The translations under genes and the position numbers were made by a program. From the IMG/VR virus record IMGVR_UViG_2880378312_000013: a DNA stretch of 54,893 nucleotides; one strand, given 5' to 3'. This document shows, in pieces, positions 1 through 53,449 of this stretch (position 1 is its first letter; every line of letters begins with the position of its first letter). Source of the DNA: a virus. Lineage: Duplodnaviria > Heunggongvirae > Uroviricota > Caudoviricetes. The notes beneath the pieces are model-generated. The model was not told the DNA's origin, ran no database searches, and saw nothing but the letters and a program-made list of their open reading frames with translations.

Positions 1-900
1 ATGAAAATCGATCTTAATCTTTTACCCATTTTTATCGCGGTAGCAGAAGAGAGTAATTTTAGTAAAGCCGCCGCACGGCTGGGCGTTACCCGTTCAGCGG
101 TCAGTCAGGGAATAAGACGCCTTGAAGATGCATTCGGGACAATGCTTGTAATGCGGACCACGCGCTCAGTTAATTTGACAGAAGCGGGAGAACGGCTGCA
201 TAAATCGCTGTCATTACCTTTATCCGGTATTGAGGCAGCGTTCGAAGAGATGGTTTCTGACCATGTGCCACGCGGACTTCTCAGAATCGCGGTGACGTCA
301 ATAGCTGAAGAATTTCTTTCAGGTCCGCTAATCGCTTCGTTTGCAGCAGCCAATCCAGCCGTTACGCTTGATATTGTTGTCACGGATGAGGAATTCGATA
401 TCGTGGCCGCAGGTTACGATGCTGGCGTAAGGCTCGGAGAGGTCATTGAAAAAGACATGATTGCTGTGCCCCTTACCGGCAGGCAGCGTGAAATGGTCGT
501 TGCCTCTCCCTCCTATCTCGCAGCCAACAGCACACCTGTTCATCCGCGTGAACTTGTGAATCATAAGTGTATCGGCTGGCGTCAGTCCCCGGAGGTTGCG
601 CCTTATCGCTGGCCATTTGAAGAAAACGGGAGAGCTTTCGACCTTGCGATTGAACCGCAGATTACGACTAATGATCTGCGTCTGATGTTGAGGCTGGCTC
701 TTGCCGGCGGAGGAATAACAATTGCCACTCAGGAAACTTTCAGGCCGTATATTGAAAGCGGTAAGCTTGTATCTCTGCTTGATGACTTTCTTCCACAATT
801 TCCGGGCTTCTATCTGTATTTCCCACAGCGTCGCAATATTGCACCAAAGCTCCGCGCTCTGATTGACCACGTTAAGGAATGGCGGCAGCAATTGGCTTAA
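1..900 (+). CDS. LysR-family transcriptional regulator
   Basis: 299-aa ORF with N-terminal HTH typical of LysR regulators (LLPIFIAVAEESNFSKAAARLGVTRSAVSQ) and a C-terminal substrate-binding-like domain. Confidence 0.85.
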   Translation: MKIDLNLLPIFIAVAEESNFSKAAARLGVTRSAVSQGIRRLEDAFGTMLVMRTTRSVNLTEAGERLHKSLSLPLSGIEAAFEEMVSDHVPRGLLRIAVTSIAEEFLSGPLIASFAAANPAVTLDIVVTDEEFDIVAAGYDAGVRLGEVIEKDMIAVPLTGRQREMVVASPSYLAANSTPVHPRELVNHKCIGWRQSPEVAPYRWPFEENGRAFDLAIEPQITTNDLRLMLRLALAGGGITIATQETFRPYIESGKLVSLLDDFLPQFPGFYLYFPQRRNIAPKLRALIDHVKEWRQQLA

Positions 901-1026
901 ATGTCTGCACCTGCATTGCCTGATGTCAGAACAGTATTTTGATTAATTGCCAGGGTTACAATGGCACAAATGCGGCACAGGAGGAAACGTGGTGTATTTA
1001 AATATGGGGTAACTACTTGATTTAAA

Positions 1027-1042
1027 TGGTGCGATAATAGGA
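1027..1042. repeat. degenerate copy of the thrW 3' att core; candidate distal boundary of the P4-like island
   Basis: tggtgcgataatagga matches the tRNA-Thr 3' end tggtgccgataatagga with one deleted base; lies just beyond the primase end of the island. Confidence 0.4.
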
Positions 1043-1575
1043 ACCAATAATCGCCACCAACACAATGATTTTAATACATAAATTAAAATAGAAGATTTAA
1101 ACTACACACACCCCTATACACATTGGTGAAGGCGTTCGCTTTCCGCGCATTCTCAAGGCAGAAAAAACTTTTTTTGGGGGAAAACTGTTCATACTACTCA
1201 TTGTGTTTTTTTTCATTAATATTCAAAAAGATATGAAATTAACGATTGATAAGAAGTGAACACTTTACTGTTCACCTTGACTGATTAATAAGTGCATAAA
1301 AACCTAATTTTTGAGCACGGAAGGTATTTGTTCCTTACCCCATTTTTTCTCTTTAGTCCAGTACAACAAAAAATGCGCCCAACAGAAAACTGTTTTGAAT
1401 TTAAATGCAATCGCTTTGTAGTGATTGTAACGTAAGTTGATTTGATGGGTGCGATTTTGTTTAGCGATAATGGTATGTTGTAAAAATCATTTCGTTGCAA
1501 TAAAATTGCATCGCTACATTTTATAGACAATATCAATTAAATTTTAATACTCATTATTAATTTTGAGGCTAACAA

Positions 1576-2532
1576 GTGACTAGTTATTCAAACTTTTCCA
1601 ATCAAATAAAAGAAACCATCAATAATAAATTCGATCATGAAATTCATGATTGGGACATTATAAAAAACTCAATCACAACTTTAATAAATAAAAATATCCA
1701 TGGTGCAGGTAGAAATATCGTTGATTTTATAGATTTAGGTAACTGGGATTTTATTTCAAACTTTTCCTTTGATGACTCTACAAGAAGACTTGAATTAGAG
1801 TGGCACCCCAATGATAAATTCCATATATATATTGAGTCCGTTGTGTTTGTCGAGTTTAATGACACTATATATGCTTTCTTAAAGGGATACTATCACAATC
1901 AGTTATCTCTAAATAGAATATATAATACAAAATGCTCTTCATGTTCATTTGAAAACTCAGGTTCTTATATGGTAGACGTTTATAGAACGGTTAAAAGAGT
2001 AAATGAGACAATCCAGACCCCAAATATAAATTGCTATACTACATGTATTTTAACAAGGCCCGCAAATGGTCATGTTACATCTACAGGCTTCTCACGAAAC
2101 CTCATGGATGCGATAAATATTTCATTAGCAGAGCACAAAATAGCCTCTTTACATAATGAAGTCATGAGTATTGAGGAATATGATCGTGATTCTTTACAAG
2201 AGAAAGGAAATACTGCCAGGAGATATTTAGAATATATTCTCATGCTTGTTAATATTCGTATAATGCATTTAAACAACGTTCAATACCAAGAGCAAATGCT
2301 AGGTAGTTTAGTTTCTGTTATTGAGGCTCTGGACTATGAACCATTAATGAAAAATGATGTTGAAATTACAAAGGACATCCTTAATGCTTGCAGCCACCAC
2401 GGGGGGGTTAGAATTGAAAAGAAAGATGTAATTTTTTCTTTGGAAGTTATTGAAAACTTAATTAAAGCCATAAAGAAAACCGACATAAATAAATTACAAC
2501 TCGATGGGATGTTTAAATCAATTCAAAAATAA
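1576..2532 (+). CDS. hypothetical protein, AT-rich orphan ORF (candidate island cargo)
   Basis: 318-aa ORF (GTG start) with strongly AT-biased codon usage unlike flanking genes; sits between the alpha-like primase and the candidate att repeat; no motif recognised. Confidence 0.5.
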   Translation: MTSYSNFSNQIKETINNKFDHEIHDWDIIKNSITTLINKNIHGAGRNIVDFIDLGNWDFISNFSFDDSTRRLELEWHPNDKFHIYIESVVFVEFNDTIYAFLKGYYHNQLSLNRIYNTKCSSCSFENSGSYMVDVYRTVKRVNETIQTPNINCYTTCILTRPANGHVTSTGFSRNLMDAINISLAEHKIASLHNEVMSIEEYDRDSLQEKGNTARRYLEYILMLVNIRIMHLNNVQYQEQMLGSLVSVIEALDYEPLMKNDVEITKDILNACSHHGGVRIEKKDVIFSLEVIENLIKAIKKTDINKLQLDGMFKSIQK

Positions 2533-2664
2533 ACATCATCTAACAATGAATTAGATGCATTTTCCGCTGACGCCTTAGCATATAACTTTTAAATTTTATC
2601 GATATATATTTTGAGATAATTTCCTGTAGCGGATTTAAGACCGGCACAGCCGGTCTTAGGTCAG

Positions 2665-5055
2665 TTATTTCGCTGCAAACTCATCGCATTTTGGCAACCA
2701 GTCAGCATTGCTTTCCTCTCTTAGGGCCAGATTAGTCTGCATTCCTTGATTGGTCCGTCGTTTCTCATACTGCAGCCCATATTCCTTGAGCATTAACGGT
2801 AGCCCCTTGCCAAACATGGTCAGACTGAGCGTATTTTTATAGCCGTTAGCCTCCATGTAGACCAGATAGGCATGGTAGAGGTAAGTTCGAGGCTGACGTG
2901 GAACAATATTAGCGTTCCCCATAAACATGCCCGTGGTGTCAGGTAGGACCTCAAGGTAGCCGCAAAAATCAAAAGCTGAATCAGCATCACGTTTGATGGT
3001 GAGCGCTTCATCGGAGTTCTGCTGTGACTGAAGCAATGTCCTGGCACTCATTGGGTCGCTGAAACGCTGCATAAGCTGGCGAACAATCACCGCTAGCTCA
3101 CTGGCAATTTTCTCTTTGAGCTGGGTATCGCGTTCCTCCGGGGCTATCTGGTCGGGGAAATGCAGGATCACCCTTCGGCGTGAAACTCCACCACTACGAT
3201 CAGTGAAGCGCATCGGATTATTGTTCACAGCCAGGATGACCGCCGGGATGTGGGTTGAATAGGCGTTCTGATATTTGGGATCAACGGATACCGCATCGCC
3301 GCCAGTGATGGCTTTTAGTCCGGCCCCGTCACCGCTCCACTTTTCCTGGTCGGGAAGTCGAATCAGTGAAAAACCTATTAACGCAGCTCGTTCTCTTGGC
3401 GACTCAAGCATTTCAATGGTTGCCGAGGTCGCGTTATCTTCACCCGCCAGCATGGTTGCTATTTCAGCAAGAATACTCTTTCCACTTCCGCCAGGGCCAG
3501 TGACCTCCAGAAACAGCTGCCAGTCATAACGGTTAGCCAGCACCATAAACAATGCAGCCAGAATAATGTCCCGTTTTTCAGGATTAAAACCTGCGGCACG
3601 ATCCAGCCAGCGCCAGAATGCCGGGGCATGGGTTTCCAGTGACTCACCGTCAACGGGCTGCGTGTAATCCACCTCGCACAGCGTACGTAACCAGTGCTTC
3701 TTATCGTGCGGGCTGAACAATCCTGTCCGGGTATCGAGCACACCGTTGCGAAATCCGATAAGTTGCCGCGCCGGATTCTGCTGTTGCGGAACGATCAGTT
3801 TGAGGGTTTCCACGAGAGACGCAATTTTCGCGGATGAAAAAGGTGCGTCGAGGCGCTGAAACAGCGCAGCGACATCACGGGCAAAATCGGCGTAATAGAT
3901 AACTTTCCAGGCCCCCGCCTCATAGCGTGAAAGGAGCTGCCCGTTCGGGTCTACTGCCAGTGAATTTTTATAGTGATCCACTACCCTCTGCGCTTTTTCG
4001 CTGACGCTCAGCGCGGTAAATTCAGCTTCGCTCATTGTGTCGAAGGGGCTGGCAACAGCTGGTTTTATTACTTCATGAATTGCATGCCGGGTGGCTTCTT
4101 CGCCGTTTTGCGTGAATGCATCGTTCCAGTCACCAAACACAGGCGGGAGCGCCATTGTGCAATTGCAGGCCCCGGTAACAGCTGCGCCCCTTGTTTGCCC
4201 CGCACCGTTGAGATCGCGGTCAGCAGCAATAATTATCTGGTGCGTTGGGTACTCACTGCAGGCAATGCTCGCCAGGGAAAGGAAATTGACGGACGAAAAG
4301 GCCACCATGACAGCATCGCCAGTCAGATAGTTGATAGTAAGTGCGGTGGCATATCCTTCCGCTATCCAGAGCCGTTTGGCTGCTTTGGCAGTACCTTCAA
4401 CCAGGTAAAAGGCATTCTTAACCTGACCGCCTTTAAGGAAGCATTTGCCCCCATTAGCGTTGATTAACTGCAGATTTACCAGCTCTCCATCTGCATACAA
4501 TGGAACGACAAGATCTCCCGCGCGAAATGCCACACCACCGACTTTATGCATAGCGGTTAATTCCCGGCAAGGCAGTGCAGGAAACCCTTTACTCGTCAGA
4601 TAGGCATTGCCAGTGGTCTGGCGGGACTTATCAAACAAACGGGCAGCCAGCACTGCTGCAGCTTTTCTCCCGTCCTCTTTTTCAGGAGAACCAGATTCAA
4701 GCATTCCCTGAGATACTGGCAGCAGGTTTCCGATAATGCCGTTTATTCTGTCTGCCGCTTCACTAATGCCTACATCCAGTACTTTACTTACAAGCGCCAG
4801 GCCATCACCTGCCCCGCACTGGTTACAGAACCACGTTCCCCGCCCTTCCTGGTCATCAAATCGAAAGCGGTCTTTCCCGGCACAGACCGGGCAGGGCTGG
4901 TGCCGATTTTTCAGTACATTTACGCCCAGCGCAGGTAAAATTCTTGACCAGTGACCCCGAGCTGCTTTCTCAGCCTGGCTAACTTTCATTCCTGACATTG
5001 TGCGGCCCTCCTTAGTGCAGCGCTGGTTTGTTGAGGTGACGGGAACAAAGTTCAT
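2665..5055 (-). CDS. P4 alpha-like primase/helicase (zinc-binding primase + D5-type NTPase)
   Basis: CxxC...CxxC zinc motif ([10 protein letters not shown]...CNQCGAGDG) and P-loop GPGGSGKS; true start may be the internal Met (MSGMKVSQ) about 57 nt downstream of the ORF start. Confidence 0.8.
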
Positions 5056-5335
5056 CCATGACCGTCATTCCGAGCAGTGAGAGAACCGGACAGGCTTTAA
5101 GCGGCCCCGACTCCATCAGATCCGAAAGCAACGCGCAGGCAATTTCCAGCCCTCTTTGCTGCCCATGCTGGCGCAGATAGAACCCTTCCAGCTCGCGGGC
5201 TATGGCATCTTCAAGTTCAGCGAGCGTCAGGCCGGAATAACGTTCCTGATGATTGCTTAGAGCCAGCCAGGCACAGGCAACGGCACGGCGATACAGAGCG
5301 GCACGAAGTGCCAGAAGAGATTCACAGCATATCAT
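5012..5335 (-). CDS. hypothetical protein (satellite early region)
   Basis: 107-aa ORF co-oriented and nearly contiguous with the primase gene. Confidence 0.4.
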
Positions 5336-5556
5336 CAGGCCACCTCCGCATTCATCAGGTCGTCATGGCAGCGTTGCACCACTCCATCCAGTTGCTCTGT
5401 CATCAGATAAATGAGGGAAACCAGTTGTTCGCATTGGGCACCTGCTGGCTTTTCATAACAGTCCTGCAGGGCTGCCATGCCAGTTACATACTCACCCACA
5501 TTGCGTAAATGTTTCAGCCTTACAACATCGTCGTAGGAAATCTCAAACTGGTTCAT
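5335..5556 (-). CDS. hypothetical protein (satellite early region)
   Basis: 73-aa ORF in operon-like arrangement. Confidence 0.4.
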
Positions 5557-6110
5557 AGCGTCACCTCCCCGGCAGGCAGCCGTGCAGAAAGGGAGAGTAC
5601 ATAATCTCGGACTAGCAAACGGCGCGCGGAACGCTCATCGCAGGAGACAGTGCGAAGCATACAGATGCGGGGGTGAGTGTCAGCACGGCGGATTGCGGCA
5701 AACACAAAGACATATTGCGGGTGTGACGGGGTGAGGATTGTAGCCATGATGGCAGCCTCCAATAAGTAGCGGTTATTGCTACCACCGGAAACGCCAATTT
5801 CACTGGTGGCAGCCCGAACGGGGTTGGCGTAACCGGCCTTATTGGAAACCGGCCAGCCCGAAGGCTGCCCCGCCCGGACTACCATTATCTCGATAGAACC
5901 ATGGTGTAAGCATAAACACCACAGCCCTGAAAATGGTTGTGCCTGAGCTACGACGTAAAAAAAGACGCAAGGGGCGTCAATTGTCGCCAATAAGTTATAC
6001 GGAACGCCAATTCCGGCTGCCGATTTTGCGACAGCGGAAAAACTATACCTGGAAATGACGACAGTAAGCAAGCCAGAATAAAGGTATTTAATGTATGCAG
6101 GTATCATCAT
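5553..6110 (-). CDS. hypothetical protein; real gene probably only the 3' third
   Basis: 185-aa ORF whose N-terminal part is low-complexity; a likely internal start at [11 protein letters not shown] would give about 64 aa. Confidence 0.3.
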
Positions 6111-6367
6111 GCATCACATCCCCGCCCACGGGCGCTGATGCGGTCCGCCATCCATGCGCTGACCTCAGACTGTGCCCAGGCGACATTTTTACCGCCAAGC
6201 GGGATCTGCTTCGGAAACGCATCGCGGCTGATCAGGTCGTAAACGGTCGAACGGGACAACCCGCATAAGTGCATCACCTCAGGCAGGCGTAAAAATCGCT
6301 CATGATGGTTCGATACAGGAAATAATGGCGCAGCAGGAGCTGGCGCAGACACAGAAATATTACGCAT
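6107..6367 (-). CDS. AlpA-family phage transcriptional regulator
   Basis: Small HTH protein with [20 protein letters not shown] motif characteristic of AlpA/prophage regulatory proteins. Confidence 0.7.
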
Positions 6368-7212
6368 TTATCTACCCTCTTTAATTTCCACAACAGTCCG
6401 GATGAATTTATCCGGGTTCAGGTAGTTCCTTATTATGTGTATATAAACCACCTGCGCACGCATTTTTTATTTAGCGTCACATATTGATTTTATGGAATTT
6501 AAAGCCCGATTAAACCATATAAAATGACATAATAAATACCATGCCTGCGGACTATAAATACAGGAGCATTAATAGGAACTACCATTCACCCAGGGTTTAC
6601 TATCCTATGGGTCATTGCACCTGATAGTGCTAACCCCACCGCCAATACAGCAAGGCAGTACAACTTCTACACGAGGCCTTGCATTGCAGGCCCCAATTTC
6701 CGGGCATATTTTTGAATCGCATCCAACTTATAAACATTGGGCCTGCATAAAAACCTTGATATTAAATAACATCACCTTAAATCGTAAAATATATCCGAAT
6801 GAATCCATAAAGAACCGGACAGATCTAGTTTTATAAAAATCAGTATGAAATGCAACACCATGGCCAGAGGCGAAAATGTTATTCCCCGGCAAAAACATGC
6901 AGTCTATTTATGTGCCTGTTGAATACTCCTGAATAAGGGTGAATAGTGGTGAGGAGCAAAAAACAAATAGCTACGAGGAATAAAAAAACCACCCATTATG
7001 AAAAAATACCATAAATAATTTTATTCCCATGTGAACAGTTATGAACAGTCGATGAATACTGCCATGCCAACCCTTCACCTTATAACCTTCTGTATTACCT
7101 ATTTTTTTTACCTAAGTGAATAGTAGTGAATAGTTAAGGTAAGTCTGAAACAGCCTTAGTTAAACGAGGCCTTTTCTGGCTAGCCAAAAGAGGTCCGGGG
7201 CGGTTCAGTCTT

Positions 7213-7230
7213 TGTCTTGTCGCTCGCACA
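7213..7230 (+). promoter_or_regulatory. TGT-N12-ACA dyad, candidate Ogr/delta-dependent late promoter element
   Basis: tgtcttgtcgctcgcaca about 70-90 nt upstream of the sid-like start; matches the P2/P4 late-promoter activator-site pattern. Confidence 0.45.
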
Positions 7231-7300
7231 ATGGCGTTCAATGGCAGCTTTGTATGCATCACAGCACAATTGACACCACGACAAACCACTAGGTGCTGAC

Positions 7301-8053
7301 ATGACAATCCCAGAACAGAACAATAACCCGATCGTTGAAATTTCTATCCCTGTTTCGACGCAACAGGCGCTTGAGAAAGTGAATGCCACCAAATCTGCAT
7401 GGCTTGAAGCACGTCGTCAGCAAAAAGCGGCAGCGGATAATATTGCGACAATCCGCCAGCGCCGCGCTGAAATGGAAGCCACGACGAACGCCCTGAATGA
7501 GGAGTGGCGCACGCTATTTCGTGAAAGTCAGGGCGTAGTCTCAAAGGAAATGAAAAAACTGCGCACGGAAATTGCGCTGGGACGAGAAACGCTTGAGGAT
7601 TTTGATGAGCTGCTGGCGGCTCAGGAAAGCGAAAATGCACTTTTGCCGCAGGAGGCTGCGGAATTAGCCGGAAAGTATATCCACGCGCACGACACCCTTG
7701 TGGGTATTCGCGCAAAACAAATCTGGGAAGATTTTATGCAGTCGCATGGAAAAGCACTAATCCAGACACTAAGCCTGCTCAAATCAACAATGGGCAGGGA
7801 AGCCAGCGCAGTTGTCGGTGTGGTGCATTCAGTTAATGACCCGGACACACTGCTGAAAGATTTTATTCATAAACATATCACCAGACCGGCTCTGACTAAC
7901 GATGCGATGCCCGAACAGGACCCCGTGTTTAAACTGGCGGGAGTTGCCCCGGATTATGCGGCCCGTCTGGATTTCAGTAATAAACTCTCTCCAGCAGCTA
8001 TGCATAAAATGAAGGTTCGTCAGGAACGTGCTGAGAAGGAGAAAGCAGTATGA
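7301..8053 (+). CDS. Sid-like capsid size determination protein (putative)
   Basis: 250-aa helical/coiled-coil protein first in a sid-psu-delta-like operon; similarity to P4 Sid is from recollection only. Confidence 0.45.
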   Translation: MTIPEQNNNPIVEISIPVSTQQALEKVNATKSAWLEARRQQKAAADNIATIRQRRAEMEATTNALNEEWRTLFRESQGVVSKEMKKLRTEIALGRETLEDFDELLAAQESENALLPQEAAELAGKYIHAHDTLVGIRAKQIWEDFMQSHGKALIQTLSLLKSTMGREASAVVGVVHSVNDPDTLLKDFIHKHITRPALTNDAMPEQDPVFKLAGVAPDYAARLDFSNKLSPAAMHKMKVRQERAEKEKAV

Positions 8054-8601
8054 TGGCCCGAGTCACTCCAGACCAAGCGCTTATCAGTTTTAGAAATGCC
8101 CGTATTCTGTGGGCTGGACATAGTGAGAGCCGAAAAGCCGTTGAACAACAGATAGAATCACTCCTCACTGCCATGGAAAAACCAGCAGATTATGCTCGAC
8201 AGCTCGAATTACAGCGGGAACATCTGGATGTGCTGAAATGGCAAATTAACTGTGCTGCGCGCGAATGCATTTACTCGCAGCATCAACTGATGGAGGCCTG
8301 CACAGAAGACGCTCTCAGCAATTTTATGCAGGCGAATGGAGCAGCCCTGACATCTGCACTGGCTCCGTTCCTGAAGGGGCGCGGAGGGGTTGACGTTGCG
8401 TCCCGTATATTACGCAATGCTCTGGTTCGCCAGCTGGCAATAACACCGCCTGAAATTGCCGGGGATTATCGTATGATTCTGGATGAATCCGGTGTGATGC
8501 CTGACCCCATGATGGTTCGTGATTGCCAGAGCTCTTACACCCCTGCACAACAACTGCGCTTTCAGCAACGTCTGGATTACATTAACGGCATGCAGGAGTA
8601 A
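8050..8601 (+). CDS. Psu-like polarity suppression protein (putative)
   Basis: 183 aa, overlaps the upstream gene by 4 nt; segment FMQANGAALTSALAPFL resembles P4 Psu as I recall it. Confidence 0.5.
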   Translation: MMARVTPDQALISFRNARILWAGHSESRKAVEQQIESLLTAMEKPADYARQLELQREHLDVLKWQINCAARECIYSQHQLMEACTEDALSNFMQANGAALTSALAPFLKGRGGVDVASRILRNALVRQLAITPPEIAGDYRMILDESGVMPDPMMVRDCQSSYTPAQQLRFQQRLDYINGMQE

Positions 8602-8606
8602 TATTA

Positions 8607-8879
8607 ATGGCACTTAAATGTCCCGAATGCGGTACGACGGCACACGCCAGAACCTCCGCCTATGAAGCACCATCGGTTAAACGCTCATGGTATCAGTGCC
8701 AGAATCTTGAATGTTCCTACACATTTACCGCACTGGAAAGTGTGGATACGATAATCATGAAGCCCCGGCGCAATGAACAGGAATCAGAGAAAGCACAAAT
8801 GCCGGAAAAACAACAGCAAACTCTCAATCGCTATGGCTCCGCGTCAAAGCTGTCAAGCCGTCAGCAAATTCCTGTCTGA
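8607..8879 (+). CDS. Ogr/Delta-family zinc-finger late-gene activator
   Basis: CPECG...HARTS...YQCQNLECSYTF pattern matches the Ogr/Delta C4 zinc finger. Confidence 0.75.
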   Translation: MALKCPECGTTAHARTSAYEAPSVKRSWYQCQNLECSYTFTALESVDTIIMKPRRNEQESEKAQMPEKQQQTLNRYGSASKLSSRQQIPV

Positions 8880-8900
8880 TTAGCAAAAAAAGCCCACGTA

Positions 8901-8927
8901 ATCCCGGTCCAGTACTGGGATTTTTTA
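8901..8927 (+). terminator. possible intrinsic terminator after the delta-like gene
   Basis: Short hairpin (atccc...gggat around palindrome ccagtactgg) followed by a T6 run; weak stem. Confidence 0.35.
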
Positions 8928-9288
8928 CGCCTTTTCCCTGGCTGGCCTGAGAGCGCATGAGTGCATGTCTATAGCGCATGAAAACGCATGATTCTCATGC
9001 ACCATTTTTGACGCGAAAGCCCTTGTGTGGTGGCTTCTGAGACGATTTGCGGAATGCATGAAAACCAGTCTGTTAAGCGAAGCGAGCAGGCGTGGGGGGC
9101 TGCGCGCGCTAAGGGGTTAGATTATAAAATATCAAACGCCGGTGAGATCCATTATTGTGGAACCACCCGAAGGAAGTGTAGAGGCGAAAGTACCCAAAAT
9201 AATTTTGCAAATTATTTAGAAATGAACTGAGCGCTCGAAACGAAATATAATTTCGAGCACCCCAATTAGCAGTTATATTTTTAATGTA

Positions 9289-9855
9289 TTAAACAGGATA
9301 AAAACCAGAGCTTCCATTCTTATTTAAGTTATGGATTTTATTTGCATCATTAATTTTTATTTGGAACGTCGGACCTTTATTCTCAAGAATTACAATCTGG
9401 AAATTATAGTCCCTTTTGATTAATGCGTGATAAAATGAATCACTGAGACTGACGCTATTAACATCCGATAGAGAACCCCCTCTATCTTTATCAAAGTGCG
9501 TCACTAATGGACTATCAAGCACAACAAATCCAATGAATGGATTCCCTTTTCTTGATAAAAATTCCGCAAAGCAAATGGTAAATATAGCATGCATTACTGC
9601 ACGGGTACCTTTACCAAACATTCCTCGGCGTTTCCCATTGATATTAAAGTCATATGTATCTTCGTCAAATCGCACTTTGTTATCTTTAGAATTTTCAAAA
9701 TTTATATCATTCAAAAAGTCTTGCATCGCTATTTCTATATCATACAAATCAGCTACTGTTAAGGAGTCAAAGTCCTCGGCGGAGTATTTAAGTTCGTCAA
9801 CATCATCTTCTTTATCTTGTAATGAAGATAGAATGCTATGTTTTGTGTGATCCAT
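9289..9855 (-). CDS. C-terminal head segment of an SMC-like ABC ATPase (Walker B-like region)
   Basis: 188 aa; hydrophobic strand followed by Asp (FIGFVVLDSPL) resembling Walker B but without the canonical Glu; start overlaps the upstream stop as TAATG. Confidence 0.55.
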   Translation of the reverse strand: MDHTKHSILSSLQDKEDDVDELKYSAEDFDSLTVADLYDIEIAMQDFLNDINFENSKDNKVRFDEDTYDFNINGKRRGMFGKGTRAVMHAIFTICFAEFLSRKGNPFIGFVVLDSPLVTHFDKDRGGSLSDVNSVSLSDSFYHALIKRDYNFQIVILENKGPTFQIKINDANKIHNLNKNGSSGFYPV

Positions 9856-10445
9856 TAAAAGATTGTCTTTATATTCATAAAGTGATTCAAGAGATGAATG
9901 TATTGTTTTATATTTTTATCTTCTAACGTCTTAAAATCACTTTTTTCTGATTGATAAATTTCATTAACATCATTTTTTCTTAACATAATTAATTCATGTT
10001 CGCGAACATTAGATCCGATTGATTCAATTAATCCTTTCAGCTGGCTTTTGATTTTCAATTTTTCTGCATTACACGACAAAAAACAATCATCATATGATAT
10101 TTCATTTTCTTTTTTTTGCGGTGTATTACAGAACTCACAATAAATATCTGCAAAATTATTTAAATAGAAATTCGCCTGTGATACAACATCTATTCTTTGT
10201 AGATCTATAAAGTATTGGTCTTTAAGAAGACTAAATCTTTCAATGAGTAATGATAAGTATTTTTCCCTGTCACTGATTGAATATAATTCATCACTTAACT
10301 CTTTTAATAATTGCTTCTTATCATCAAGTGCATCAACAATACCTTTCAATATATCTTTCGATGATTCAATATCTTGCTCTACTTTCTCAAGTTCTCTTGA
10401 AACAATGACTTGATCATATTCAGGATAAATTAATTGCGCTTTCAA
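9855..10445 (-). CDS. coiled-coil middle segment of the SMC-like ABC ATPase
   Basis: 196 aa, highly charged heptad-like sequence, TTG start; in the same frame as the upstream ORF and separated from it by a single TAA. Confidence 0.55.
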   Translation of the reverse strand: MKAQLIYPEYDQVIVSRELEKVEQDIESSKDILKGIVDALDDKKQLLKELSDELYSISDREKYLSLLIERFSLLKDQYFIDLQRIDVVSQANFYLNNFADIYCEFCNTPQKKENEISYDDCFLSCNAEKLKIKSQLKGLIESIGSNVREHELIMLRKNDVNEIYQSEKSDFKTLEDKNIKQYIHLLNHFMNIKTIF

Positions 10446-10475
10446 TTCCTCATAAATATTTGCAATTTGATTTTT

Positions 10476-11135
10476 TTAAAAATATCTTGCTTTTTTATTT
10501 GGTTTTTCTGCTAAGGAGTTAGTATCATCTCTCTGAGTTAAAAGGAATTTAAATTCAGACTTTCTTTTTGTCTCCTCGCTAGGAATATCAGAAAGAATTA
10601 ACGACTTCTCAGTTAACACTCTTAATTCATCAATACAAAAAAATTCAAAAACATTATTAAGATTAAATTTATGAAGAGTATTACTTAAGTTTGTTCTTAC
10701 TTTAGCCTCTTTGAAATTCAACCTACCATAAAAGTATGATGAAAAACTCTTTTTAGACGAAGCACTTTTGGAAAAAACCATCAACAGATTAGCTTCACTA
10801 ACATTTTCAATGCTCGAATCATATAATCTGTAATGGGCGCTATCCTGAAGAGACCTCTCAATTGTCATTACCCTACCTTGAAAATTAAATTCCAGATAGG
10901 CTAAATCATAACCTTGAGCATGATCGATATCTTTATTTTTTAGTTTTTCACTCCCTAATAAATATCGAATCAAATAATATATGTATGTTTTTCCAGAGTC
11001 AGAACCACCATATAAAATAGTCAATTTAGAACCAAATTCAATTATAGCATCTAATTTATTGAATCCGGTTACCTTTATTTTTCTGAACGTAAAAAAATTG
11101 TCATTCATAATTAAATTCCATATCATATTTGCCAA
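10476..11135 (-). CDS. N-terminal head segment of the SMC-like ABC ATPase (Walker A)
   Basis: FRKIKVTGFNKLDAIIEFGSKLTILYGGSDSGKTYI matches the N-terminal strand plus P-loop of SMC/Rad50/RecF-like ATPases; likely true start at MNDNFF. Confidence 0.65.
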   Translation of the reverse strand: MANMIWNLIMNDNFFTFRKIKVTGFNKLDAIIEFGSKLTILYGGSDSGKTYIYYLIRYLLGSEKLKNKDIDHAQGYDLAYLEFNFQGRVMTIERSLQDSAHYRLYDSSIENVSEANLLMVFSKSASSKKSFSSYFYGRLNFKEAKVRTNLSNTLHKFNLNNVFEFFCIDELRVLTEKSLILSDIPSEETKRKSEFKFLLTQRDDTNSLAEKPNKKARYF

Positions 11136-11574
11136 TTTTATTTTTTATAATTGATTGCAACTGCTCATCAGGAATATCACTATATAACTTAACCACCAAA
11201 TTTATATTATGCTCCATCTGCGCAACATATTCATTATGTAGAGAATTTGTAAATGCATATGTTTTTTCAGAAGCTTTATATACAAAACCACGATGTGTAT
11301 AAATTTTTGAGGCTAGTTCATAGCCTTGCAACAAAGCCAATGATTCTAAAACAATCTCTCGTTTTAGGGCTAACTGAGCATCTCTACGGGGTATTGGAGG
11401 ATGAAGACTAATCTCTTCAGGTAAAAAATCCTTAAGATTTACTAAAATAAAATCAAAACAAATAAGCCGTTCAAGGCTTAATGAAGAAGGATAAATAGCG
11501 ACGAGCACTTTCGCCATTCGACATGCCACTTCTAAACTTGAATTATAAATTCTAACCATTATCTCACCGTCCAA
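11101..11574 (-). CDS. small helical protein, candidate middle component of a three-gene defence cassette
   Basis: 157 aa, TTG start, overlaps both neighbours; position matches LmuC/ABC-3C middle components. Confidence 0.45.
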   Translation of the reverse strand: MDGEIMVRIYNSSLEVACRMAKVLVAIYPSSLSLERLICFDFILVNLKDFLPEEISLHPPIPRRDAQLALKREIVLESLALLQGYELASKIYTHRGFVYKASEKTYAFTNSLHNEYVAQMEHNINLVVKLYSDIPDEQLQSIIKNKIGKYDMEFNYE

Positions 11575-12176
11575 ATTACTTCACCATCATTAACCAAATG
11601 ATGGCATATTCCTTTTTTATCATTTGCTTCACATATTTTTGATAGTACTGAATGTGCAATTGGTGTCAGAACAGCCTGCTTCAAGACTGCATTACACCTA
11701 ATAAATGCATAATTATGGTCTTCATAAAAGACGGGTTCAATTGAAGATGAAATGTAACATTTCAATGCTTTGAATACATCATCTTTAAATACTTCGCGGA
11801 CAAAAACCTCAAGCGAAGATGCAAAATAAAAATCATTTCTACTATTATTAAAGTGTCGTCTGTATGGATCATCAAGCTCTAAGAAAGAACTATAAGTTTT
11901 ATTTCCATGCTCTGAATAGGCTTGAAGCAGTGCATTAACATATACAGACTCTTTTTTTGAATTGTATGTTGGAATTTCATTTGGAGGGATTCTCACGACA
12001 TACAGCTCGTTAAAGTACTTAAAATAAAGGTGTGTATTTGCAATATCATTTAAAATCAATGATAAGGGTAGAGAGTAAAAAATACTAAAATCAAAATCCT
12101 CAATATATTTTTTTATTTCATCATCTAATGGAATATCAATCTTTTTAGTTATTTTTTTGAAATTGCTGAATCCCAT
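11559..12176 (-). CDS. C-terminal part of the candidate effector protein (frameshifted relative to the upstream ORF)
   Basis: 205 aa; overlaps the upstream ORF by 28 nt in another frame across an A7 tract. Confidence 0.5.
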   Translation of the reverse strand: MGFSNFKKITKKIDIPLDDEIKKYIEDFDFSIFYSLPLSLILNDIANTHLYFKYFNELYVVRIPPNEIPTYNSKKESVYVNALLQAYSEHGNKTYSSFLELDDPYRRHFNNSRNDFYFASSLEVFVREVFKDDVFKALKCYISSSIEPVFYEDHNYAFIRCNAVLKQAVLTPIAHSVLSKICEANDKKGICHHLVNDGEVIWTVR

Positions 12177-12565
12177 GAATCAAGGACTGCTTTTTTAAGC
12201 TCGTTTTTATTTTTCAATAAATTAGAAAATGTAGTAGATAAATCATAGGGTGCCACAAAAAAGTACTTCTGAGGGATGGGATAATCACCATTCAGAGTAA
12301 AATAGATAAGTTTTCCAAACTCAACTACAACATCAGAGAACCCTAAACTTTTTTTGTACAGTTTGCATTGATAATTATCCCAAGAATAACCTTCTACGTT
12401 AGGATCCGATTTATATCCAACAACGTCTCTACCTTTATCTCCAGCTCCTCCCAAACGTTCGCTCCACGGGTAATCATCTGATTTACAGACAATAAGCCAA
12501 TCATGGACAAATACCTCCCATTGTTCATCATCCCATGTCAATATTTCCGAAAGTGGTTGAGACAC
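12149..12565 (-). CDS. N-terminal part of the candidate effector, PD-(D/E)xK / Mrr-like nuclease-fold motifs
   Basis: 138 aa, GTG start; GAGDKGRDVVGY followed by YQCK resembles the D...(E/Q)xK core of restriction-endonuclease-like folds; assignment is tentative. Confidence 0.45.
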   Translation of the reverse strand: MSQPLSEILTWDDEQWEVFVHDWLIVCKSDDYPWSERLGGAGDKGRDVVGYKSDPNVEGYSWDNYQCKLYKKSLGFSDVVVEFGKLIYFTLNGDYPIPQKYFFVAPYDLSTTFSNLLKNKNELKKAVLDSWDSAISKK

Positions 12566-12568
12566 AAA

Positions 12569-13801
12569 TTAACTCCTTTTTAGTCTTTCAAATATCAAAT
12601 TACTGTACCAGTCCATCATAGACTTCCTTCCACTAAAATATTGAGCATGGTTATAAGTCCCCCTAATAGAATTTTTATCTACATGAGCCAACTGGATTTC
12701 AATCCAAGCACTCTCAAAACCTTGCTCATGCAGGATTGTAGAAAGGGTATGACGAAAACCATGTCCAGTGACTTTTCCTCCATACCCAATACGCTTAATG
12801 GCTTGATTTATACTCGCTTCGCTCATTGGCCTATTCGGATCGTTCCGCCCTGGAAAAACATAACGATAGTTCCCTGTCATGATCTTGAGTTCATTGAGTA
12901 AATCTACCGCTTGAGATGATAAGGGCACAAGATGTGGCCTACGCATTTTCATCCTTTCAGCAGGAATTTCCCAAATAGCGTTATCCAGATCAAATTCTTG
13001 CCATAATGCCGCGCGTAATTCGATGGTTCTCACACCCGTAATCATCAGTAATTTCGTGGCTATCTGGACAAGCTTACTCCCGGAGTAACCCTCTAAGGCA
13101 CGTAGAAAATCAGGTATCTCATCAGCTTTTAGGAATGGGAAATGATTGGATTGGTGTACTTCGAGAGCGCTGGAGAGATCAGCCGCAGGATTGTACTCCG
13201 CCCTACCCGTTGCAATTGCGTAGCGAAACACTTCGGAGCAACGCTGCCGCACTTTGCGCATTTTCTCCAACGCACCACGTTTCTCAATTTTACGCAGAAC
13301 GTTCAGCAGCTCTAGCGGTTTAATCTCTCCCACAGGCCTTGTTCCGACATAAGGAAAAATGTCGTTCTTAAACGCTTCCATGATGTCTGATGCATATCCC
13401 GCCGACCATTTAGCAGATTTAAGTTGATGCCACTCTCTGGCTATCTTTTCGAAGGCGTTCTCTGACTCTGTTTGCATAGCTAGCTTTTGCTCTTTTCGAA
13501 CCTCACTAGGGTTCTTTCCTTCTGCCACAAGTTTTCGAGCTTCATCACGACGGGAACGAGCATCGGCAAGGGTGATCGTTGGGTAAACACCAAGCGAGAT
13601 CATTTTGGGTTTGCCGGCATAGCGATAGCGGAACCGCCAACTCTTGCTTCCATTAGGTTCTATAAGTAATGACAACCCTAGCCCATCTCCAAATGTATAG
13701 GCTTTAGCTTCAGGCTTAGCGCGGCGAATCTGCATATCGTTTAAAGGCATGTGTATAGGAATCCAGACCGAACAGGAACATATACACAATCCTATACACA
13801 T
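12569..13801 (-). CDS. P4-type tyrosine integrase
   Basis: 410-aa ORF with C-terminal catalytic region (HGFRHT...Y); sits next to the partial tRNA-Thr repeat, co-oriented with it; probable start at MPLNDMQ. Confidence 0.9.
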   Translation of the reverse strand: MCIGLCICSCSVWIPIHMPLNDMQIRRAKPEAKAYTFGDGLGLSLLIEPNGSKSWRFRYRYAGKPKMISLGVYPTITLADARSRRDEARKLVAEGKNPSEVRKEQKLAMQTESENAFEKIAREWHQLKSAKWSAGYASDIMEAFKNDIFPYVGTRPVGEIKPLELLNVLRKIEKRGALEKMRKVRQRCSEVFRYAIATGRAEYNPAADLSSALEVHQSNHFPFLKADEIPDFLRALEGYSGSKLVQIATKLLMITGVRTIELRAALWQEFDLDNAIWEIPAERMKMRRPHLVPLSSQAVDLLNELKIMTGNYRYVFPGRNDPNRPMSEASINQAIKRIGYGGKVTGHGFRHTLSTILHEQGFESAWIEIQLAHVDKNSIRGTYNHAQYFSGRKSMMDWYSNLIFERLKRS

Positions 13802-13912
13802 TCAGTACCGGATTCTACTGGATGGTTACGGACTACTATGGACTTAAAAGAATAAAAAATGTTATAAATCAGAGATTTTATGGACTAATACGGACGTTTG
13901 AGGAAGTTGAGA

Positions 13913-13958
13913 TGGTGCCGATAATAGGAGTCGAACCTACGACCTTCGCATTACGAAT
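13913..13958 (-). repeat. 46-bp direct repeat of the thrW 3' end (att site shared by both elements)
   Basis: tggtgccgataataggagtcgaacctacgaccttcgcattacgaat is identical to the 3' part of the intact tRNA-Thr at 53450-53495, then diverges. Confidence 0.8.
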
Positions 13959-14233
13959 TATAAGAATCCGCTTCTAATTCAAAGCATTACCCCATCAACA
14001 CTGCGCTCACACGTCCCACCACATCAAAACATGTAAAGCCTTGCAAGCCATTGCGAGGCCTTATGTGTCTCAGTTTTGTCCCACCTTGTATTACGACTTG
14101 CATAGCCAATGAAGATAAACGTGACGACAAACGGCGCAGCAGTCTTCTTTTCTTTCACGACTTCTCCAGCATGCATACCTTTCTGCCATGACTGAAGTGA
14201 ATGCCTGTTATGAGCGAGGATTGGCCCAGATGA

Positions 14234-14671
14234 ATCGCCCTGGACTGTTGCGATCGTGAAGCCATAGACTGGGCCGCAAGCACGGGAGGTTACGATAAAG
14301 CGACAGTGCAGGATGTCATGTTAGGAGCGATAGAAAAACGCTTTGGCGATAAAGTACCGGAACAGTCCATCCAGTGGCTGACAGATAACGGTTCAGCGTA
14401 TAGAGCGCATGAAACACGGCAGTTCGCCAGAGAGTTGAATCTGGAGCCCTGCACAACGGCAATCAGCAGTCCTCAGAGTAATGGAATTGCAGAAAGGTTC
14501 GTGAAAACGATGAAGGAAGACTATATCGCGTTCATGCCGAAACCGAATGTAAGAACGGCATTGCATAATCTTGCAGTGGCGATCGAACATTACAATGAAA
14601 ACCATCCGCACAGTGCGTTGGGTTATCGCTCTCCGCGAGAATATCGACGTCAGCGGGTAACGTTAACTTAA
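14234..14671 (+). pseudogene. IS2-like (IS3 family) transposase orfB remnant
   Basis: Translation [23 protein letters not shown]...[14 protein letters not shown]...[14 protein letters not shown] matches the integrase-core C-terminus of IS2 InsD as I recall it; in-frame stop upstream and no orfA. Confidence 0.6.
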
Positions 14672-14712
14672 GATACACCCCCTGTCTGGAAATAAGGGGG
14701 CAAGAACAATGA

Positions 14713-15465
14713 TCAGATTCCCTGGTGAGTAAGAATTTTACTTTCTGAACTCCTCTGAGAGTATTGACTTGGAGAAACACCAAAATAACGTCTAAATACA
14801 TAAGTAAAGTATGAGACACTGGCATAACCACAGACCTTAGCTACTTTACTAATAGGATAACAACGAGTGCTGAGTAAATATTCAGCCATTTGCATCCTCT
14901 CATCAAGTATGATCTTACTGAATGATACCCCCTCTTCTTTCAATTTCCTCTTTAGTAAACTTTCGCTGAGATATAATCTTGATGATATATCCTTAAGACG
15001 CCATGGTGCAGATAAATCCGTATGAATAATCGTTTTAACTTTAGCCCCTGTGCTTTTCAAACATCCAAACAGAAATACTCCAAATTGTTTTTCAGAAGAA
15101 AATGCAGAGAGACATGTAAAAGCAATAGACTCATCAAAAATTTCTATGTATTCAGCACAGTGATTAGCCCAACTAATTAATCCTTTAATTAAACTGAAGT
15201 CAGCAAAGTTTATTTTTAAATAAGATGGATATTCCCTACAATCAGAAATATCCCTTAAGTTATTAGCTTTCAAATAGCGACTAATAAACTCAGCGCCAAA
15301 ATCCGCCACTATCACTCTTTCAGGATATGTCAGGAAAAAATCTCTAGAGCTAGAGTCGACAAGTACAGATGAACCTCTCTCCAGAAACACACTCTCTTTT
15401 CCGAAATAAACATCAAAGGACTCCAAAATCAATATAACTGAACATGTAGTTGCCATATCATCCAC
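14713..15465 (-). CDS. AraC-family transcriptional regulator
   Basis: 250 aa, C-terminal AraC-type HTH (ISKVAKVCGYASVSYFTYVFRRYFGVSPSQY); gene is markedly AT-rich. Confidence 0.8.
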   Translation of the reverse strand: MDDMATTCSVILILESFDVYFGKESVFLERGSSVLVDSSSRDFFLTYPERVIVADFGAEFISRYLKANNLRDISDCREYPSYLKINFADFSLIKGLISWANHCAEYIEIFDESIAFTCLSAFSSEKQFGVFLFGCLKSTGAKVKTIIHTDLSAPWRLKDISSRLYLSESLLKRKLKEEGVSFSKIILDERMQMAEYLLSTRCYPISKVAKVCGYASVSYFTYVFRRYFGVSPSQYSQRSSESKILTHQGI

Positions 15466-16038
15466 CCAATTTAACTGAAACCAGGATGAAGTATATGTAT
15501 ATAAAGTTCACTTTGCCAAACTTCAGTATAAAAAACCACTAAAAATAGGGTGTGATAAAAAATACCGTAACAATAAAGCAAAGGATTATAAATTCCGTTA
15601 CAGTTACAAATGATACTCAAGAAACAATTCCTTAGGAAAAACTTATTTACAGCCAATAAGTAAGACACTTATATGATATCAAGTTTTCATAAAACATAAC
15701 TAGGCTAAATAGCTGCGCCTAATACCGCTACACTTTTGCCAGCCCATGTTTGCCTCCGGGTATTGACCCCTTCTCTACGCAACTTCAGTTCCCACCACCA
15801 ACTTTGCGGCAGCTTTGTAGGATCAATGTCTAAAAGAATAATGGTGACCGATAAGAAAACGACTGAATAACTGCAGATTTTCGCTCGAAACCTTCCTGTC
15901 AGATCCATAGCGAATCAAGTGCTGAATGTCACAGTATCGAACAGAAAACAGTGACGATCTAACCCTTCAAGAATATTCTACGATTGTTCTGTTTAGGAAA
16001 AGCAAGGCGGGAAGTCGGGAGATAAGTCATTGATAAAG

Positions 16039-16104
16039 TGGCGGAGAGAGGGGGATTTGCCCCCCCGGTAGAGTTGCCCCTACTCCGGTTTTCGAGACCG
16101 GTCC
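16039..16104 (-). other. partial tRNA-Ser(CGA)-like 3' fragment (relic att site)
   Basis: Reverse complement reads ggaccggtctcgaaaaccggagtaggggcaactctaccggggg..caaatccccctctctccgcca, the anticodon-to-3'-end part of a serU-type tRNA; 5' third absent. Confidence 0.6.
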
Positions 16105-16184
16105 AATCATCAAACGAAACATAAAATTAATTCACATTATGAGGAAAAGTATCTTTTTTGTACTATGTAAATTCAAAGACTTAG

Positions 16185-17054
<870 letters not shown>

Positions 17055-17114
17055 GTCTTTAAGTGATAAGCATAAACCGCAGCACGATCTTCTTGCATAC
17101 GACGTGCTACGGTT

Positions 17115-17714
17115 TCATTTATCTCCGACCGGAAACTTCTTATACAGTGTCGATATACCAACATCATAGATGATCGCCACCTTTTGGCGAGGAACGCCTG
17201 ATGCAATTAATCGCCCGGCCTGCGCCCATTGTTCTGGTGTAAGTTTGGGACGACGTCCACCAATTCGTCCCTGTGCGCGAGCTGCTTCCAGTCCAGCTTT
17301 TGTTCGTTCAACAATCAGTTCACGCTCCATTTCAGCCAGGGCACCCATCACATGAAAGAAAAAGCGCCCCATTGGGGTACTGGTATCAATTGAATCCGTC
17401 AGACTACGAAAGTTGATGCCTCGTTCGCGCAACTCCTCCACCAGCACGACAAGATGCCGCATACTGCGCCCCAGTCGGTCCAGTTTCCAGACCACCAGCG
17501 TGTCACCTGCCGATAATGTCCTGAGCAGCTTTTTCAGTCCTGGTCTGTCGGACTTTGTACCGCTTATCTTGTCTTCAAAAATCAGCTCACATCCTGCACA
17601 CTCCAGCGCATTACGCTGTAATTCCGTATTCTGGTTATTTGTTGATACGCGGACATAGCCAATAAGCATGAGCATTCCCCTGAGTAAAAACCGGGGATGA
17701 TGCCAGTTAGCCAT
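17115..17714 (-). CDS. serine DNA invertase (Gin/Pin/Hin/Cin family)
   Basis: MLIGYVRVSTNNQNTELQ...LVVWKLDRLGRS...GRIGGRRPKLT are hallmark resolvase/invertase motifs; real start at the internal MLIGYV. Confidence 0.9.
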   Translation of the reverse strand: MANWHHPRFLLRGMLMLIGYVRVSTNNQNTELQRNALECAGCELIFEDKISGTKSDRPGLKKLLRTLSAGDTLVVWKLDRLGRSMRHLVVLVEELRERGINFRSLTDSIDTSTPMGRFFFHVMGALAEMERELIVERTKAGLEAARAQGRIGGRRPKLTPEQWAQAGRLIASGVPRQKVAIIYDVGISTLYKKFPVGDK

Positions 17715-37000: not shown

Positions 37001-37522
37001 TACTCCAATGAAGAAGCTACCGACATAGCCTCCTCCATTCGTCGTGAAACTATTTTCATCTACCCAGTAATGAATTCTTTGAAGAGTTGTAATCAATACA
37101 ACTCGCTAATGGAGAGGCTTGTCTCACACGTGAGACAAGCTTCCTGTTTGATTTACTGGACACTATAGAAGGACAGAATGCCTTCCTCACTCGAATCACA
37201 TCAATTAAGGAGGTTCAACATGTTTCATTCCACAAGTCATCAGGCTGTAATTATGGCAGCATCAGTTTGTGCCACAGACCTTTTCCGCTTCACTTTGAGC
37301 CTGATTCATTTCTACCTGACCGGCTCGCCTCTATCTTTTTAATCCCCGCTTTATCCAAATTGCATTGCCAGAATGCCGACAACAGACTGACATTCAAATC
37401 CTGACTACCTCCAATAGTCTGACCGTACACCTATATAGTTTTAATTTTCATCAATCCATTTAACTATCGTTTAATTGTTGTCACATAGGATTCTGCCGTT
37501 TTTAACAATGCAGGATAATAAG

Positions 37523-52045: not shown

Positions 52046-52395
52046 TGGAGCCATACAGCCTCACACTCGATGAGGCCTGTCATTTTCTCAAGATATCCAG
52101 ACCGACTGCCATTAACTGGATACGCACAGGGCGTCTTCAGGCAACACGCAAAGATCCCACTAAGAATAAATCTCCTTACCTCACAACACGACAAGCCTGC
52201 ATTGCGGCTCTTCAGTCTCCGCTGCATACTGTCCAGGTGAGCGCGGGTGATGGCATAACAGAGGAAAGAAAATGTCACTCTTCCGCAGAGGTGAAATATG
52301 GTACGCCAGTTTCACATTGCCGAACGGTAAAAGATTTAAACAGTCTCTTGGAACAAAGGACAAAAGGCAGGCGACAGAACTCCATGACAAGCTAA
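52045..52395 (+). CDS. xis: excisionase (P22 Xis-like)
   Basis: [36 protein letters not shown]... HTH; overlaps int start. Confidence 0.7.
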
Positions 52396-53435: not shown

Positions 53436-53449
53436 CTTATTGATTTTAA

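Follow-up and report, generated by a model that had tools for sequence, protein, structure and literature searches.

Our analysis indicates that positions 1027-13958 of the 54,893-nucleotide (nt) stretch examined here (referred to throughout as the window; a Caudoviricetes sequence recorded as IMGVR_UViG_2880378312_000013) are very probably Sp2 of the Escherichia coli O55:H7/O157:H7 lineage, a P4-like satellite integrated at the tRNA gene thrW, next to which an SfV-type phage was inserted later, and which is now likely quiescent. A sequence-only reading of the window had proposed a P4-like satellite and an unrelated prophage in tandem at thrW. This arrangement holds, with an SfV/SfIV-type prophage as the second element, and it is already annotated and published as Sp1/Sp2, making the present description a rediscovery. 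It carries little weight as a discovery, since the tandem stands in the record of the O157:H7 strain Sakai and both P4-like satellites and SfV-type phages are well characterised; the boundaries and the classification read from sequence alone proved correct. The value of the analysis for annotation lies in the single-C form of the satellite attachment (att) repeat, in a mismatch between the family PF10554 and the protein epsilon, and in a pseudogenised Lamassu system carried by a P4-like element; it also draws attention to one uncharacterised HEPN-like cargo gene.

Over positions 1-14200, the window matches E. coli O157:H7 Sakai and some 300 further genomes at 100% identity. The Sakai record annotates window positions 1043-13929 (NC_002695.2 310628-323514) as 'prophage Sp2, P4-like phage' and places a 10.6-kb 'prophage Sp1, lambda-like phage' between Sp2 and thrW. 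The satellite itself shows no difference from Sakai Sp2, with which it shares sequence, limits, thrW/yagP position and gene set, whereas its neighbour is an intact 39.5-kb SfV-type prophage here and the 10.6-kb Sp1 remnant in Sakai. Given this longer neighbour, the window does not derive from Sakai. We take Sp2 to be the same element as CP-933I of EDL933. In some O157 strains (e.g. Xuzhou21 and NZRM3614) an IS1203-type element interrupts Sp2. Previous studies described Sp2 as a P4-like prophage of O157:H7 Sakai (PMC2669165; PMC8046923) and the thrW site of Sp1 and Sp2 as occupied by a 'compound prophage' (PMC8190617).

The sole tRNA gene detected in the window by ARAGORN is an intact thrW, tRNA-Thr(CGT), located at 53450-53525 on the minus strand. 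The 46-mer forming its 3' end, TGGTGCCGATAATAGGAGTCGAACCTACGACCTTCGCATTACGAAT, is present in two exact copies, one within thrW (53450-53495) and one at 13913-13958, where it had been noticed from the sequence, and in none of 100 shuffled sequences. As a whole, the copy at 13913-13958 forms the distal att of the SfV-like prophage; the 17 nt with which it begins (13913-13929) constitute the tRNA-proximal att of the satellite. At the other end of the satellite, the distal att is the 16-mer TGGTGCGATAATAGGA, which lacks one C relative to the initial 17 nt of the thrW 3' end, occurs once in the window (1027-1042) and in none of 100 shuffles, and recurs in relatives. The sequence-only reading had taken this repeat as the left bound of a roughly 12.9-kb element and had suggested alignment against an uninterrupted locus. 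We built a synthetic empty site by joining window positions 427-1026 to 53450-54049 and searched it in 5,426 complete E. coli genomes. The empty site was contiguous in 818 of them, the yagP-side flank running straight into thrW, and alignment of two such genomes with the three junctions of the window gave the native junction ...GGGGTAACTACTTGATTTAAA|TGGTGCCGATAATAGGAGTCG..., with the break after position 1026. These alignments indicate that the sequence to the left of 1027 is the native flank downstream of thrW and that the similarity to the tRNA gene stops at 1042. The left boundary is thus confirmed by the empty-site genomes, the junction being the predicted one and no different junction being seen, and the satellite spans 12,887 bp (1043-13929), with limits equal to those of the Sakai annotation.

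In a published definition, P4-like elements are recognised by the co-localisation of int, psu, delta, sid, alpA, 'epsilon' (scored as PF10554) and alpha (PMC8628076). All seven markers are present in the satellite, and Pfam searches and comparisons with P4 recovered every gene that the sequence-only reading had named (int, AlpA, an alpha-like primase and sid/psu/delta-like genes). The P4-family tyrosine integrase (12569-13801, minus strand; start at 13750 in the Sakai annotation) carries Arm-DNA-bind_3, Phage_int_M and Phage_integrase domains (PF00589, E=1.8e-25, together with the P4-type arm-binding domain) and is 38% identical to P4 Int. Both integrases had been proposed to face the att repeat; the satellite integrase does face the copy at 13913, whereas the prophage integrase (52272-53435, plus strand) abuts the intact thrW at 53450. 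The alpha primase-helicase (2665-5055, minus strand; 777 amino acids (aa) from the start at 4998 in the Sakai annotation) combines Zn_Ribbon_Prim, Toprim_3, D5_N, DUF5906 and Pox_D5 (E=1.3e-17) domains, includes the P4-like marker PF03288 and related families, and shares 73% identity with P4 alpha across 771 aa (tblastn). Also encoded on the minus strand are a DUF5375 homologue of P4 orf106 (5012-5335; Pfam E=1.7e-49; 71% identical; P4 orf106 is named cnr in PMC8628076), a Phage_ASH open reading frame (ORF) lying over a cI-type RNA (5553-6110; PF10554, E=4.8e-30, profile positions 1-106 of 107; 68% identical to the P4 'cI' ORF) and an AlpA/Vis excisionase-regulator (6107-6367; Phage_AlpA PF05930, E=1.2e-19; 66% identical to P4 orf88, the annotated excisionase of the P4 record). 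The late genes, on the plus strand, encode a Sid-like capsid size determination protein (7301-8053; 23% full-length identity to P4 Sid by BLASTP, E=5e-12; phrog_6165, E=5e-96; Pfam Psu fold, E=7e-10), the capsid decoration protein and Rho inhibitor Psu (8050-8601; PF07455, E=4.8e-42; 31% identical to P4 Psu) and a single-domain, 90-aa Ogr/Delta zinc-finger late activator (8607-8879; PF04606 Ogr_Delta, E=1e-16). The latter shares 41% identity with the N-terminal half of the double-domain, 166-aa P4 delta and is listed as an ogr homologue in PMC2669165.

Passing this marker test does not extend to epsilon itself. No tblastn match of P4 epsilon was found in positions 1-14200, where true epsilon (PF25738 'Derepression') is absent, and the place of P4 epsilon/orf151 is occupied by a 73-aa protein (5335-5556, minus strand; phrog_10110, E=3e-42) showing no similarity to P4 epsilon and no Pfam family. 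This protein probably belongs to the ~75-aa family found in 61% of P4-like elements (PMC8628076), a match by size and position only. In P4, PF10554 matches the 'cI' ORF over the cI RNA (8168-8584), not epsilon, suggesting that elements scored as 'epsilon'-positive with this family may lack the helper-derepression protein. The satellite is such a case, lacking the derepression function despite passing the marker test. An epsilon homologue has been reported on the P2-like prophage Sp13 of Sakai, and an ogr homologue on Sp2 (PMC2669165).

The regulatory elements of the satellite are likewise of P4 type. A C4/cI antisense immunity RNA, a trait of P4-like satellites, was detected at 5802-5889 on the minus strand (Rfam RF01695, 84 bits with a gathering score of 45, E=1e-15). 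On the same strand lies an IsrK-type leader RNA with a1/b1-type C4 target sequences (5958-6048), the leader (5958-6035) reaching 71.9 bits (RF01394; gathering score 50) and the a1b1 target 44.6 bits (RF03163), slightly below its gathering score of 46.7. Two sets of P4 'type I' octamers, the alpha-binding repeats annotated in P4, were recovered. One is an AT-rich cluster of five variants (GGTGAATA, TGTGAACA, TATGAACA and GTGAATA twice) in the alpA-sid interval (6937-7135), a place matching that of the annotated P4 ori between orf88 and sid, and is by this analogy a putative ori. The other, found by a motif scan against the annotated P4 repeats, is an inverted pair, GTGAACA ... TGTTCACC, at 1256-1275, which we regard as a candidate crr-like site in the alpha-side arm.

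A TGT-N12-ACA late promoter had also been proposed from the sequence. The site exists, as a Psid-type dyad at 7213-7230 (plus strand), 71 nt upstream of the sid ATG; the pattern itself is not enriched in the window (10 found, 14 expected). The significance of the dyad derives instead from its column-by-column alignment to its counterparts in P4 Psid and in a sister satellite from E. coli O169:H41, not from pattern frequency. The promoter is homologous to P4 Psid, and its activation is predicted to be Ogr/delta-dependent. Directly past delta, a hairpin followed by a T run can be read in the sequence; it is absent from the terminator-scan list.

The cos site was less readily recognised. No match to the P2/P4 cos 19-mer was found within 3 mismatches in the satellite. 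A candidate divergent cos, TGCATGAAAACC ... GGCGTGGGGGGCTGCGCGCGC, is located at 9054-9112 (plus strand), where the sequence aligns weakly but colinearly with the cos junction of P4 (score 24, compared to 18.9+/-2.4 for shuffles). No phage record matches this region, and the cos of a matching P2-like helper would be expected to resemble GGCGTGGGGGGCTGCG. The sister element is conserved up to its cos-like block, GGCGTGGCGGGG, and diverges beyond it, a pattern that would fit a cos at the edge of the cargo hotspot.

Compared to P4 (NC_001609), the satellite retains the order int, cargo hotspot, candidate cos region, late genes, Psid and ori-like cluster, vis, cI RNA, cnr, alpha, crr-like site and att, as well as the C4-type immunity RNA, the TGT-N12-ACA Psid and the type I octamers. 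It differs in its integration site (thrW versus leuX) and, as indicated by the identity of only 38%, in its integrase, in the order of its late genes (sid-psu-delta versus sid-delta-psu), in its single-domain delta, in the 73-aa protein carried instead of epsilon and orf151, in a decayed Lamassu system occupying the hotspot that holds gop, beta and cII in P4, in an extra HEPN-like gene between alpha and att, and in a candidate cos region where the P4 19-mer is not conserved. The sister satellite of O169:H41 (strain 2014EL-1345-2) uses the same thrW site and the same single-C repeat, and has the same core order and an int arm that is ~96% identical. Its hotspot (13460-17261 of the sister locus) contains a UvrD-helicase and an ATP-dependent nuclease, Gabija-like by annotation, where Sp2 has Lamassu, and it lacks the 318-aa HEPN-like gene by alpha. 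With nearly the same core genes and different hotspot contents, the two satellites show how cargo can be swapped while the chromosomal site stays fixed.

The cargo of Sp2 resides in two blocks of 28-34% GC, compared to ~50-55% in the core, suggesting that these genes were acquired. The larger block, in the int-delta hotspot (9289-12565, minus strand), is a Lamassu/ABC-3C system in the canonical order LmuA, LmuC, LmuB. The int-psu region is a known defence hotspot of P4-like satellites (PMC13586616; PMC8628076), and order and location are those of the ABC-3C systems found there, the difference being the state of the genes. lmuA (11559-12565) carries a frameshift that leaves two ORFs, 12149-12565 and 11559-12176, matching PADLOC PDLC03852 at 10-140 and 141-333 of 336 (Pfam ABC-3C CTD6). 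lmuC, encoding ABC-3C middle component 2 (11101-11574), is apparently intact (PADLOC LmuC, E=2.5e-36; Pfam MC2, E=6e-30). lmuB, encoding the ABC-3C/Lamassu SMC-like ATPase (9289-11135), is a pseudogene in three pieces (10476-11135, 9855-10445 and 9289-9855) covering PADLOC PDLC03863 at 3-199, 231-412 and 428-608 of 610; the first two share a frame interrupted by a stop codon, a frameshift sets off the third, and the Sakai annotation also lists the ATPase as a pseudogene. Since LmuA is in two pieces and LmuB in three, the system is a decayed member of its family rather than a functional one. In O55:H7 DEC5A, Lamassu is also broken, by different, partly overlapping breaks (10478-13753 of that locus). 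Among the pseudogenes of P4-like satellites, <1% look like defence genes (PMC13586616), a figure that makes the decayed Lamassu an uncommon case, and its pseudogenisation is consistent with long residence without turnover.

If the satellite followed the P4 paradigm, integration at the thrW end and excision from it would depend on the integrase and Vis, the cI-type RNA would hold the leftward operon terminated, and alpha would replicate the excised circle from ori/crr. Spread would require an active P2-type helper providing capsid, tail, terminase and lysis. With such a helper active, Psid and the late promoters would be fired by Ogr/delta-type activators, and capsid assembly by the helper would be diverted by Sid towards small shells decorated with Psu, into which the helper terminase would package the satellite from a divergent cos.

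In published tests on Sakai, circularization, replication and packaging of Sp2 were all negative, with or without mitomycin C (PMC2669165, Table 2), and Sp13, the only P2-like prophage reported in this strain, is defective and without head genes (PMC2669165). Together with the lack of a true epsilon and the decay of Lamassu, these results indicate that Sp2 is today most likely quiescent and passed on vertically with its host chromosome. Several observations speak against this reading, or limit it. The core satellite genes are all intact ORFs, so that apparent quiescence may just reflect the lack of a suitable helper in the tests; the negative excision data come from Sakai and not from the strain of the window; a P2-like helper might lie in parts of the genome beyond the window; and the cos, only weakly recognisable, is a candidate rather than a confident identification.

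It is accordingly possible, albeit not probable, that Sp2 is fully competent, excising and being packaged at high frequency whenever a compatible P2-like helper is present, and that its silence in Sakai reflects the lack of such a helper. The full-length int, vis, alpha, sid, psu and delta genes would agree with this, as would an immunity RNA far over the Rfam threshold, the conserved Psid dyad, the ori- and crr-like repeats and an att form that is normal for the family. Against competence stand the lack of any circular form in Sakai even after mitomycin C (PMC2669165), the absence of an epsilon/derepression protein, a cos-like sequence that is unlike P2/P4 cos and carries an indel relative to the sister element, and the pseudogenised Lamassu, which, given the rarity of defence-like satellite pseudogenes (PMC13586616), suggests long residence without turnover. 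Quiescence remains the preferred reading.

A further scenario concerns what might retain a quiescent Sp2. The second low-GC block, in the minor primase-att defence hotspot, holds a gene (ECs_0304; 1576-2532, plus strand) encoding a 318-aa protein with an N-terminal beta-rich domain and a C-terminal HEPN-like helical domain, in which the four-helix HEPN fold was recovered. The catalytic R-x(4-6)-H motif is absent from this protein; the invariant motif is L269-N-x-C-S-H274-H, and the presence of Leu in place of Arg renders RNase activity uncertain. The protein is unannotated and rare, with homologues forming stand-alone islets in Proteus and Serratia, and the gene is a candidate defence gene. 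On this basis, Sp2 might be kept in O55:H7/O157:H7 as an immobilised cargo carrier in which Lamassu decays and the 318-aa protein remains intact, the latter possibly being a new single-gene anti-phage (abortive-infection) factor. We consider this unlikely as a whole.

The order in which the two elements arrived at thrW was addressed by means of a synthetic junction consisting of the Sp2 int arm, complete thrW and proA. This Sp2-alone junction was contiguous in 120 genomes, including O55:H7 DEC5A and O157 strains 493/89, 2571 and F6321, at 99.8-100% identity, and in O55:H7 an intact thrW sits where the 46-bp copy lies in the window. The junction representing the opposite situation, an SfV-type distal arm joined to the yagP flank, was contiguous in 23 genomes; the 12 of these that were listed, among them a baboon isolate, an O157:H16 strain and EC93, include no O55:H7 or O157:H7. 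O55:H7 is ancestral to O157:H7. The occurrence of Sp2 alone in O55:H7 and in some O157 strains implies, by parsimony, an initial arrival of Sp2 and a later entry of the SfV-type phage into the regenerated thrW, and we regard this order as the most likely one. Under such a model, the satellite would first have integrated at the thrW 3' end, its distal copy carrying the element-borne single-C version; the SfV-type phage would later have recombined with the regenerated thrW, leaving the 46-bp repeat against the satellite integrase arm, and would in Sakai have decayed to the 10.6-kb Sp1. It weighs against this order that Sp2-alone strains could also stem from precise excision of the phage, the argument being one of parsimony. 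The reverse order, with the SfV-type phage arriving first and the displaced 46-bp piece of the tRNA gene later serving the satellite as secondary attB, would produce an identical end structure, and the 46-bp copy does include the 17-nt core of the satellite. It is nevertheless improbable in view of the O55:H7 DEC5A and several O157 genomes, in which Sp2 abuts an intact thrW with no SfV-type phage, and of the lack of O55:H7/O157:H7 among those listed with the SfV-type arm at the yagP flank.

The neighbouring element, located at 13959-53449, is a 39.5-kb SfV/SfIV-type prophage, as indicated by PHROGs and by 97.6% nt identity to SfV over 17 kb. It encodes an HNH protein, TerS, TerL, portal, HK97-type major capsid protein, tail sheath and tape measure, as well as Mu-like DNA-circulation and baseplate proteins, a Pin invertase, lysis genes, lambdoid O-like replication functions and a CI repressor. 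The HK97-like head and Mu-like tail recognised from the sequence are thus borne out by both PHROGs and SfV identity. Its SfV-family integrase (52272-53435, plus strand) shows 100% identity to that of SfIV and 98.5% to that of SfV, and its gene ends 14 nt from thrW. SfI, SfIV and SfV share a 46-bp attP and integrate at thrW (PMC3851460), and the exact 46-bp repeat flanks the prophage on both sides, as expected for an SfV-family att. Copies that are 100% identical are present in cattle-associated O157:H7 strains (e.g. 119, accession NZ_CP028662, as well as M7638 and 21B8), and a 24.9-kb prophage test segment is covered to at least 80% in 66 genomes. The prophage is the intact counterpart of the Sp1 remnant of Sakai.

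These features bear on whether this phage could itself mobilise the satellite. The sequence-only reading had judged the prophage not to be an obvious P2-type helper, and the HK97-type head, the sheathed Mu-like tail and baseplate and the lambdoid early genes agree with that judgement. That it serves as a non-P2 helper is very improbable. The two elements are physically adjacent, and two TGT-N12-ACA matches (37120-37162) lie just upstream of the phage HNH/terminase genes; the first of these dyads is, however, the stem of an 11-bp hairpin, the pattern occurs at chance frequency, Sid, Psu and delta form a P2-type hijacking system, the prophage combines an HK97-type head with an HNH/TerS/TerL packaging module unrelated to that of P2, and Sp2 is present without an SfV-type phage in ancestral strains.

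The single-C form of the distal att repeat was then considered across relatives of the satellite. Besides the O169:H41 sister, which combines it with a ~96% identical int arm and other cargo, it is found in O55:H7 DEC5A, and a scan of one genome per bacterial species recovered TGGTGCGATAATAGGAA in ~25 Enterobacterales species. In 9 of these, an Sp2-like alpha gene is located 0.3-2.6 kb to the right of the repeat on the opposite strand, as in Sp2. At several loci (L059, L081, L088 and L127), integrase-arm sequence is present on the left, giving an attP-like int-arm/core/alpha-arm junction that appears to be of the kind expected between tandem elements; the CC form is seen at few loci (L014, L049 and L076). 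Because of this recurrence in many Enterobacterales species, the single-C repeat is the normal, family-wide att form and not a private decay. The term 'degenerate', used of the repeat in the sequence-only reading, is thus correct in that one C is lacking, but not as a sign of decay.

From these junction sequences we infer that it is the element that carries the single-C version, with strand exchange taking place at or to the left of the CC, within approximately ATGGTGC at the extreme 3' terminus of the tRNA gene. Exchange at this extreme position would leave the element's single C in the distal junction while the tRNA gene keeps CC, and the predicted composition of the Sp2 attP would be GAAGTTGAGA-TGGTGC(C)GATAATAGGA-ACCAATAATC. 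The rival view that the 16-nt match at 1027-1042 is a chance one, with the true left end elsewhere, could once appeal to the shortness and imperfection of the repeat and deserves practically no credence now, being refuted by its absence from 100 shuffles, by the break point of the empty-site genomes exactly at the repeat, by the same junction in independent species and by the same limit in the Sakai annotation, and left without support after testing.

At the arm adjacent to thrW, positions 53430-53449 of the prophage (GTAACTTATTGATTTTAA) resemble the native flank downstream of thrW at 1009-1026 (GTAACTACTTGATTTAAA), suggesting that the homology of SfV-type attP reaches, imperfectly, ~18 nt past the 46-bp core. 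A similar flank is also found downstream of thrW at two Klebsiella loci.

Compared to the Shigella phages SfV, SfIV, SfI and SfII, the prophage shares the integrase (98.5-100%), the head-tail region (97.6% to SfV over 17 kb) and the 46-bp thrW att. No gtr serotype-conversion genes (gtrA/gtrB/gtr(type)) next to att were found among the ORFs of 13959-17100; unlike in the Shigella phages, this att-distal end carries an rve insertion sequence (IS) fragment (14306-14671, plus strand), an AraC-family regulator (14713-15465) and a LEM-3-like GIY-YIG protein (16230-17054). An IS3-family transposase (48996-49883, minus strand) marks an IS insertion in the early region of the prophage. Directly upstream of the HNH/terminase genes, a hairpin with an 11-bp stem (GCTTGTCTCAC-AC-GTGAGACAAGC) is located at 37115-37142; it holds one chance TGT-N12-ACA match and may be a regulatory or cos-adjacent structure.

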